Assembly: GCA_964188305.1 (NCBI GenBank)
Contig: OZ076892.1
Strand: one strand, 5' to 3'
Length of the DNA stretch: 64,000 bases
Source of the DNA: Podarcis bocagei
Taxonomy: Eukaryota
Made by a program: the position numbers and the translations under genes
Notes under the pieces: generated by a model
The model's input: the letters and a program-made list of their open reading frames with translations, nothing else
What the model was told of the DNA's origin: nothing
Databases searched by the model: none
Shown: in pieces, positions 11,691-64,000 of the stretch
Position numbering within the stretch: the stretch's first letter is position 1
How the letters are laid out: every line of letters starts with the position of its first letter

Positions 11691-11710
11691 AGTGGCCTGC
11701 CCATGGGTCA

Positions 11711-12314
11711 TGTGCTGGGCCTGGGGGTAAACCCGAGCAACACGGTCCAGGTCTGGTCCAAGGGTTCCACAAAGGGTCAGTCCGACAGGGTCAAGGCAGG
11801 AAACCAGGCTAGGTCAGGCACAGGGTCACAGGCAGGTTCTAGCAAGCAGCAATGTTGCTGCCACAACCTGGGGCGGGGTCCGACAGCCTTTTATCTCTGC
11901 CGGGGTAATGGCTGGTCCTGATCCCCCGGTTACTCATCTCCCTGTCTCGCCCGAAGGTGAGCACTCCTCCTGCGAGTACTCAGGTCTCTCCTTCTCTCAG
12001 ACCTGAGTCTCTGCAGCTCGGGAGATATCGGTGGGTTACTAGACCCAGAGGCTGCCTCAGCCTCTCCTGACCCAACTGGTAGTGGAGTAGCTGTGAGTGA
12101 TTGCCCAGCTGAAGGTAATCCCCGCATCTGGAGCCAGGGCAGGCTCAGCCCCTGACTCGGCCCAGCTGATGCTTCTTGCAGGGGAACCTGTGCAGACTGG
12201 GGCTCTTCAGAATCAGACCCCAGACTTGGTTCCGATGCTACCAGAAGCAGAGGATCCGGTGCGGACTGAGACTCCTCTGGTTCTGAGTCCGAGCCCGAGT
12301 CCCAGGCCATCACA
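11711..12314 (-). mobile_element. Solo LTR, 604 bp, probably Gypsy-like
   Basis: TG...CA termini with TGTG/CACA inverted ends and a perfect 5-bp TSD GGTCA (11706-11710, 12315-12319). On the minus strand a TATA-like GATAAAAG lies near 11887-11896, followed by a GC box and GACC-rich repeats. Confidence 0.85.
11930..12310 (-). CDS. Putative LTR(U3)-encoded 126-aa protein (acidic/Ser-Pro-rich, Arg-rich C-terminus)
   Basis: ATG at nt 5 of the LTR in a good Kozak context (gtgATGG). The frame is open to TAA about 35 nt before the TATA-like box: MAWDSGSDSEPEES...LQRLRSERRRDLSTRRRSAHLRARQGDE. No expression or homology evidence. Confidence 0.4.
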   Translation of the reverse strand: MAWDSGSDSEPEESQSAPDPLLLVASEPSLGSDSEEPQSAQVPLQEASAGPSQGLSLPWLQMRGLPSAGQSLTATPLPVGSGEAEAASGSSNPPISPELQRLRSERRRDLSTRRRSAHLRARQGDE

Positions 12315-13108
12315 GGTCACTTTGTTCTCCTTTCCACCTATTTGTTCAATCCCCAAGCACACTTTGGGCAGAGGCTCTCATGGATACCTCTCCTTTATAC
12401 TCTCCACTGCCCCACTGAAGAGCTGCCTTCAGAGGGCGTGAGCTTGCGAGATGTCTCTTCAGGCTAGCAGGAAATAGTGGGGGGGGGGGGAGAGAGCCTC
12501 TCCCCGCTCCCCCCCTCTCTCTTGGAATGTACCAGGATATTTGCCAGGCTGTGGGCTGAGCCTGTGACTCAGAGTGTGCTGCCCTCCCTTGTTTGTGCCT
12601 CGATTTCCCAGGAAAGCCAGGACGGGTGTGTGTATGACAGAACAGATCTCACAGCCAAGGATGTGGCAGGCCTCCCTCGCTTAGCTCATGTGGCAGCTAC
12701 TTACACTTAGAGCACTCTGAGGGCACATACGTAGAAATTACTGCCCCTTCCCGACAAAGAAGGAAAGAAAGGGGGCGGCAGCGGCAGGAGGGAACAGTGG
12801 CGTAACACTGCTTGTGAGTGTATACAACTGTTCCTATTGATTTGCAAAAAAGCAATGTTTGAAGGGCCCAGCTGCAGAGCCCACAGTCTCAGGCCTGATG
12901 TTGGCATTCAGCCTGTGGCATACTCTGGTAGTTGGCAGGACCCGAGTGCCCTGGATACTGGCTACGGGTGTCCTGCAGTTCTGGCTGAGCTGGGAGCTGC
13001 CACCAGGGAAAGGCTGCAACTTAAATGCAAACTGAACTGAACTTCTCCTCCATCCCTACATGTGTTTATAAGCAGAGAACTGGAGCAATTTCAGAAAACT
13101 AAGGGGGG

Positions 13109-63589: not shown

Positions 63590-63628
63590 ATGGGGGTCTT
63601 CTTCTTTTGTCTCCCACTCTGTCTGCAG
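63590..63628 (+). promoter_or_regulatory. 3' splice acceptor of FOXO6 exon 2
   Basis: tcttcttcttttgtctcccactctgtctgcAG directly before AAC TCG ATC CGG. Confidence 0.93.
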
Positions 63629-64000
63629 AACTCGATCCGGCACAACCTGTCTCTGCACACCCGCTTCATCCGCGTGCAGAACGAGGGCACGGGCAAGAGC
63701 TCCTGGTGGATGCTGAACCCCGAAGGGGGCAAAACCGGCAAGACGCCCCGTAGGCGAGCCGTCTCCATGGACAACAACAGCAAGTTCCTGCGGATCAAGG
63801 GCAAAGCCAGCAAGAAAAAGCAGCTGCAGGCAGCCCAGGAGCGTGGAGAGGAGAGCCCGGCCAGCCAGCAGGCCAAGTGGTCAGAGAGCCCTAACTCCCA
63901 TGCGAGCGAGGAGTACGACGCTTGGGCCGACTTCCGGACGCGGGCCAACTCCTCGGCCAGCACCTTGAGCGGGCGCCTCTCCCCCATCATGGCCAACCAC
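63629..64000 (+). CDS. FOXO6: Forkhead box protein O6, coding exon 2 (partial; continues past the window end)
   Basis: Polypyrimidine tract ending gtctgcAG (63627-63628), then a phase-0 open frame: NSIRHNLSLHTRFIRVQNEGTGKSSWWMLNPEGGKTGKTPRRRAVSMDNNSKFLRIKGKASKKKQLQAAQERGEESPASQQAKWSESPNSHASEEYDAWADFRTRANSSASTLSGRLSPIMANH. This is the C-terminal half of the FoxO forkhead domain, split at the conserved WK|NSIRH intron. HTRFIRV, KTGKTPRRRAVSMD and KFLRIKGKASKKKQLQ are FOXO6-type residues. The ORF track misses it because it has no start codon. Confidence 0.95.

Follow-up and report, generated by a model that had tools for sequence, protein, structure and literature searches.

A U3-encoded C-terminal tail of integrase in a lizard chromodomain Ty3/Gypsy retrotransposon family, with a candidate HMGN-type acidic-patch motif

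The reading frame within U3 of a solo long terminal repeat (LTR) of the lizard Podarcis bocagei is the C-terminal tail of Pol, and thereby of integrase, in a large family of chromodomain-bearing Ty3/Gypsy retrotransposons. This assignment follows from the continuity of the frame with integrase and chromodomain across the purine tract: in full-length copies a single frame encodes gag, protease, RT, RNase H, integrase, SH3 and chromodomain, continues through the polypurine tract and extends 108–142 codons into the 3′ LTR. The tail opens with an acidic block and closes with a basic one, the two being joined by a Pro/Ser/Ala linker that varies, and is under purifying selection between subfamilies. 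The best explanation of the whole, to which we give a probability of about one half, is a U3-encoded Pol tail that would serve as an HMGN-type tether to the nucleosome acidic patch. The window, i.e. the whole stretch analysed, covers 64,000 nt of contig OZ076892.1 and contains one decayed copy of the LTR.

This copy is a solo LTR left by recombination and decaying neutrally (Table 1). As predicted, it is cleanly bounded, with TG..CA ends and GGTCA on both sides, it has a minus-strand ATG at LTR position 5 opening the 126-codon frame of the quoted protein, and this protein is polarized in charge (net −10 in the first third, +4 in the last). The frame is not the intact gene that had been announced, being interrupted by two compensating gaps and a premature stop at codon 127. 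Compared with four close relatives, a 1-nt gap near 12149 and an 8-nt gap near 12116 push the linker out of frame and then back in, and U5 carries a 7-nt gap. The predicted spacing of ~35 nt between the stop and the TATA-like box exists in this copy (34 nt) but is an accident of decay, since the frame of most relatives has 142 codons and ends inside the TATA-like box. At the position where the motif of the window copy has His, the 30 closest copies have Arg (13), His (11), Cys (5) or a gap (1); this split fits CpG decay and agrees with the proposed CpG-type origin of the His codon. ATG frames of at least 126 amino acids appear in 134 of 2000 base shuffles of the window LTR (6.7%), so that the single copy is weak evidence and the family data carry the case. 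Pfam gives no significant match for the window protein, and no tandem repeats were found. In RNA runs from a related organism, all reads on the window copy (8/8 per bulk run) have a base absent from it and therefore come from other copies; its unique flanks are essentially devoid of reads and no expression of the copy is seen in these runs. Most likely it makes no protein, and on its own it is ordinary. It lies antisense within a ~114-kb intron of a forkhead gene, which from its motifs we take to be of the FoxO type. The two halves of the forkhead domain, ~114 kb apart at about −50,300 and +63,620 in window coordinates (63620–64000 on the plus strand, and G000:C7 about 22207650–22207800), make almost the whole window intronic.

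Table 1. Features of the solo LTR in the window
Feature	Position	Strand	Remarks
Solo LTR	11711..12314	-	604 bp; relatives about 620 bp; chromodomain-bearing Ty3/Gypsy, older subfamily
Target-site duplication, left, 5 bp GGTCA	11706..11710	.	identical to 12315-12319
Target-site duplication, right, 5 bp GGTCA	12315..12319	.	identical to 11706-11710
U3	11865..12314	-	boundary inferred from self-priming-complement site of sister elements
Pol/integrase C-terminal tail remnant, 126 codons	11930..12310	-	premature stop 11932-11930; 142 codons in most relatives
Acidic Ser/Asp/Glu block, tail start	12269..12310	-	conserved between subfamilies, net pN/pS 0.14-0.28
Out-of-family-frame stretch	12116..12149	-	flanked by 1-nt and 8-nt gaps
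Basic block LQRLRSERRR...RRSAHL	11954..12016	-	HMGN-like motif position 11971-11954
TATA-like box	11887..11895	-	34 nt beyond the premature stop
R/U5 (inferred)	11711..11864	-	begins at self-priming complement

The pattern of a purine tract followed by the LTR start recurs as a junction in the genome, and eight linked sister elements of about 5.7–5.9 kb were retrieved whole. All eight have paired LTRs, 91.9–99.7% alike including gaps; an uninterrupted frame of 1564 codons exists in three and is broken in five. The internal element is identified in linked copies as a Ty3/Gypsy gag-pol with chromodomain joined to the LTR. In a sister copy, Pfam domains follow one another in the order gag, protease, RT, RNase H, integrase, SH3 and chromodomain, the last (PF00385, E 8.4e-15) at the integrase C-terminus, where the Y-W-Y cage residues of group I can be read directly. 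In two of three copies a 10-nt complement of the sequence that follows the 5′ LTR lies ~31 nt past the TATA-like box. The element thus appears to be primed from its own 5′ end, as described for the Tf1/Sushi group (PMC6317226), and the position of the complement places the whole frame within U3. With U3 upstream of the inferred transcription start, a solo LTR would not transcribe the frame from its own promoter. The nearest database matches are amphibian and fish polyproteins labelled Gypsy/Tf2. Like the Tf1/Sushi-group chromoviruses (vertebrate V-clade, MAGGY and Tf1), as reported, the element combines a single gag-pol frame in the order PR-RT-RH-IN with a three-aromatic chromodomain at the integrase end, a 5-bp target duplication and a self-complementary primer site (PMC6317226, PMC3350952). 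Unlike them, it adds after the chromodomain a selected tail of 108–142 residues, all in U3; most of its database relatives end soon after the chromodomain.

At the junction itself, the gag-pol frame enters the U3 frame, the chromodomain frame passing the purine tract (..GRGDGV) into MAWDS.. without a stop. The two frames are in phase in 16 of the 25 polypurine-tract-linked 3′ LTRs, which contradicts the original prediction of a stand-alone accessory gene of the MMTV sag or nef type, and 14 of these 16 have no stop from the chromodomain onward. A first set of 19 comprises 12 junctions in frame and open, one in frame with a stop and six shifted; a second set of six comprises three in frame (one with a stop) and three shifted. 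The nine shifted junctions (L050, L056, L057, L066, L221, L222, L243, L252 and L254) differ, where measured, by −2, −1 or +1 nt within the G-rich sequence that precedes the LTR, and this in several subfamilies; the in-frame length is the commonest there (11/17, plus one at +3). Such length shifts could be due to replication slippage, to assembly error or to a built-in mechanism for dropping the tail. The only linked copy found in the window subfamily, L240, has an LTR 81.8% identical to the window LTR over its own length and an in-frame junction. It is internally deleted, with one stop in a decayed chromodomain and a near-perfect target duplication; its integrase is 73–75% identical to those of the sisters and the order from RNase H to integrase is kept. 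In UniRef, a Podarcis muralis polyprotein (P0003) that is 97% identical to a sister copy has the complete tail at its C-terminus. A protein search with the 142-amino acid frame gave one match among 247 candidates and none among 4201 longer ones, a blank that reflects a lack of sensitivity, since a polyprotein with a sister tail was found by another search.

The family is abundant. A DNA search of the genome returns 1646 candidates; the 40 that were scored are, the window copy aside, all full length and 87–90% identical. A 17-mer of the LTR has 653 exact matches, and a non-coding 16-mer common to all subfamilies has 1969. Most of the best 30 copies are about 620 bp long with a 142-codon frame that ends in the TATA-like box; their mean pairwise distance is 0.102. 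In a U3 tree, re-rooted so that the support label of the group is no longer interpretable, the window copy, 21 sampled copies and L240 group together with nothing else. Nearly all members of the window subfamily are solo LTRs, L240 with its internal deletion being the only linked copy found; the younger subfamilies, by contrast, contribute well above a hundred 3′ LTRs linked to a purine tract, and the mean tip branch is 0.051 in the window subfamily against 0.002–0.034 in the younger ones.

Selection was assessed on natural copies sampled through a non-coding motif. Among the first 100 matches listed, 87 were retrieved, the other 13 being already sampled or part of linked elements; removal of seven without a recognizable start and of three others (two 5′ duplicates and one aberrant) leaves 77. 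The frame is open through the basic block in 59 of the 77, and 44 of these 59 have exactly RRSARL, which confirms the predicted family motif. Six subfamily groups account for 53 of the 59, two copies with deletions in the motif and four intermediates being left aside, and were compared by net divergence (pN/pS). Between the window subfamily and four others, net pN/pS is 0.16–0.33 in the basic block (bootstrap P at most 0.001) and 0.56–0.78 in the linker; in the acidic block it is 0.14–0.28 between the window subfamily and other subfamilies. Other pairs give 0.20 (P 0.03) and 0.21 (P 0.02) in the basic block and two are not significant (0.58, P 0.25; 0.59, P 0.18), it being understood that subfamily pairs share branches. 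The last 240 integrase codons give 0.21–0.28, and at 0.24–0.26 they come close to the basic block in the comparisons of the window subfamily. The two other sense frames give 1.3–4.0 and contain stops in 28/53 and 53/53 copies, the stop-free tail frame of the compared copies being a property of the set by construction, and one antisense frame gives 0.51–0.77. Diagnostic differences at codon positions 1/2/3 number 9/3/19 in the basic block and 3/3/15 in the acidic block. From the LTR start to the motif end, all six shared length classes are in frame, as are 66 of the 77 copies; from the motif to R the distance is 95–99 nt, in all three phases, so that constraint stops shortly past the motif. Across subfamilies, indels keep the frame and pN/pS is below 1, which bears out the prediction of a coding frame read from the 3′ LTR. 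Within the window subfamily, pN (0.101) and pS (0.087) in the basic block are as expected for neutral decay after insertion.

What the tail does can be approached from its motif. RRSAR is what has been resolved of HMGN2 on the acidic patch; functional short variants of it are reported from Dsup and Dot5 (PMC12487698, PMC13347269). The tail resembles all three, as presented in these sources, in that Leu follows the RRSAR core and the region around it is polar and of low complexity. It departs from HMGN, as Dsup and Dot5 do, beyond the core, with RRSARLKA or RRSARLQA rather than RRSARLSA (the following residues are KA, QA and others), and it sits on a retrotransposon enzyme. It is tempting to propose that RRSARL is an arginine anchor of the HMGN type whose main job would be to tether integrase to the H2A–H2B acidic patch, an assignment from sequence likeness that stands at, or just short of, even odds. 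The genomic RNA, running from R to R, would hold the 3′ U3 only, so that the tail would be translated once per polyprotein and would remain on integrase. Its RRSAR core would dock on the H2A–H2B acidic patch of host nucleosomes, and the linker, being flexible, would give the motif access to the face of the nucleosome at the same time as the chromodomain reads an H3 tail. Reading of methylated H3 is reported for MAGGY (PMC3350952); if the group I chromodomain of the lizard element does likewise, chromodomain and tail motif would together achieve a two-point capture of chromatin. Complex prediction of the tail with H2A–H2B of the same genome scores 0.02, in a run whose controls were not folded; such tools are reported to miss HMGN2 as well (PMC12487698).

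The main rival is a nuclear-import signal: the tail would sit on integrase and its basic block would mainly bring the pre-integration complex into the nucleus, as with the C-terminus of Ty1 integrase. The two invariant Arg clusters, QRLR.ERRR and RRSAR, lie about eight residues apart, the literature discusses NLSs at the integrase C-terminus of chromoviruses and Ty1 (PMC3605345), and in P0158 and P0237, both distant relatives, the end is basic but RRSAR is absent. A six-residue Arg-rich motif fits import, or nucleic-acid binding, as well as a tether. Classical NLSs, however, allow Lys for Arg and need no invariant Ser-Ala, and in alignment A1, made of 20 copies selected because their block is open and contains the motif, Ser-Ala is invariant besides the Arg clusters; frog tails, moreover, retain RRSxRL in otherwise unalignable sequence. 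Import as the main role is less likely than a tether. Less likely again is a general DNA- or RNA-binding or chaperone extension, or a small product cut off by the protease, in which the acidic block would act as an intramolecular damper. Charge polarity speaks for it, being kept in all subfamilies (−10 to −12 at the start, +6 to +11 at the end) and, with different motifs, in P0158, P0234 and P0237; against it, specific residues are invariant, and not charge alone.

The tether reading draws on relatives outside lizards. Two polyproteins of Leptobrachium leishanense (P0006 and P0007, of 120 listed) have a GGVM junction and, ~60 residues later, RRSPRL, in tails that otherwise do not align with those of the lizard. 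Among 150 representatives, P0158, P0234, P0237, P0169 and P0203 show a similar junction followed by an acidic block, their position relative to an LTR being deduced from protein homology; P0158, P0234 and P0237 also end in a basic block. RRSxR occurs in seven of 87 post-chromodomain tails of at least 14 amino acids, against a shuffle mean of 1.08 (0/2000), for a motif chosen beforehand from the lizard family and matches that are not independent. The other 80 tails, many of which end soon after the chromodomain, are without RRSxR, and the clade therefore does not need it. Somewhat more tentatively than the tether itself, one may propose a vertebrate chromovirus integrase with a second, U3-encoded chromatin reader of the HMGN type beside its chromodomain, with related RRSxRL tails in frogs and with solo-LTR exons as possible competitors.

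MMTV sag and lentiviral nef are coding sequences that overlap U3 and are read from the 3′ LTR, and they are made as separate proteins from spliced RNAs. The lizard frame resembles them in coding within U3 and being read from the 3′ LTR, and differs in being fused to Pol. It is improbable that the U3 ATG starts an independent accessory protein, whether from an RNA that is spliced or has its own internal promoter or by host read-through of solo LTRs. The ATG is kept in 75 of the 77 sampled LTRs, but the ATG and the supposed Kozak bases belong to the LTR terminus TGTGATGG. The most plausible view is that the ATG belongs to the terminal TGATG; the lizard LTR has this terminus in common with plant CRM LTRs, where it is reported as typical (PMC3059260), and Met is absent at the matching junction of the two distant relatives P0234 and P0237 (Val-Val, not Val-Met). 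Three database gene models (P0002, P0129 and P0151), all of them predictions, take the ATG at the LTR tip as their start codon and continue into host exons or gag. LTR reads outnumber internal reads in the RNA runs of the related organism, which would suit a separate transcript. Stranded reads there cover the internal region thinly (depth about 0–5) and mostly in sense, and at this depth no GT-AG joint into the 3′ LTR is seen, both joints listed being non-GT-AG. A contig from a run whose RNA nature is a guess extends from integrase through the purine tract to 60 nt into the LTR. The near-equal pN and pS within the window subfamily and the continuity with Pol also argue against a protein of its own. 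Least probable is a functionless frame that arose as a by-product of the high GC content of the LTR and of a lost stop codon at the end of pol: the shuffle frequency of 6.7%, linker pN/pS of 0.43–0.97 and shifted junctions in 9/25 would suit it, but third-position bias, low pN/pS in two blocks and indels in frame only up to the motif largely refute it.

For a selected tail encoded in U3, plants offer an architectural precedent. In CRM group A, Pol enters the 3′ LTR to encode a targeting domain (the CR motif), the chromodomain being replaced (PMC3059260), and an extension of the frame into the LTR is described for Bingo elements of beet. Pol extends into the 3′ LTR in CRM group A and in the lizard element alike, but the latter belongs to another clade in another host kingdom, keeps its chromodomain upstream of the purine tract and adds the U3 tail. 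Short chromatin-tethering motifs are likewise reported in other retroelements: foamy virus Gag tethers to the acidic patch and affects integration site choice (PMC9040877), and the C-terminal tail of MLV integrase binds BET proteins (PMC5053271). They differ from the lizard tail in that the foamy motif lies in Gag and the MLV tail binds a host reader, and these sources describe neither as U3-encoded. No account of an HMGN-like integrase tail encoded in U3 came up in the literature search, which covered openly accessible papers by title or opening of the abstract but neither Repbase nor Dfam; a selected tail of this kind is apparently undescribed so far.

How vertebrate Ty3/Gypsy elements choose and hold their target chromatin is poorly known, and a motif on integrase is testable at the peptide level. 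If the tether reading is true, a retrotransposon enzyme would share its nucleosome docking site with HMGN, Dsup and foamy virus Gag. As the tail begins with an ATG that is part of the LTR terminus, each of thousands of solo LTRs would then also offer an exon, ready for use, for a small competitor at the acidic patch. The tail explains the codon-structured evolution of an LTR, a sequence usually held to be non-coding. It also carries a warning, as LTR-derived ‘small genes’ and gene models of lizard annotations, P0002, P0129 and P0151 among them, are in fact parts of Pol.

Several minor observations concern the wider LTR population. Two exact patterns for linked copies of the window subfamily gave three solo LTRs and no match, respectively, and a pattern allowing mismatches gave L240. 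Four pairs of nearby copies considered as full-length elements contain no pol and are separate LTRs. The LTR copies L009 and G000:C3:109948898, 16 kb apart, have the same upstream flank and only one of them has a matching target duplication, which suggests local duplication or rearrangement. A different LTR family (L201 and L226–L229) starts with TGTGACG and has a long non-coding stretch before the purine tract; no read-through tail is seen in it. With a loose purine-tract pattern for other chromovirus families, 24 of 25 loci lack an integrase directly upstream and one has a short match. Neither AATAAA nor ATTAAA occurs in the three sister LTRs L070, L071 and L075, the U5 of which is made of short C/T-rich repeats in variable number.
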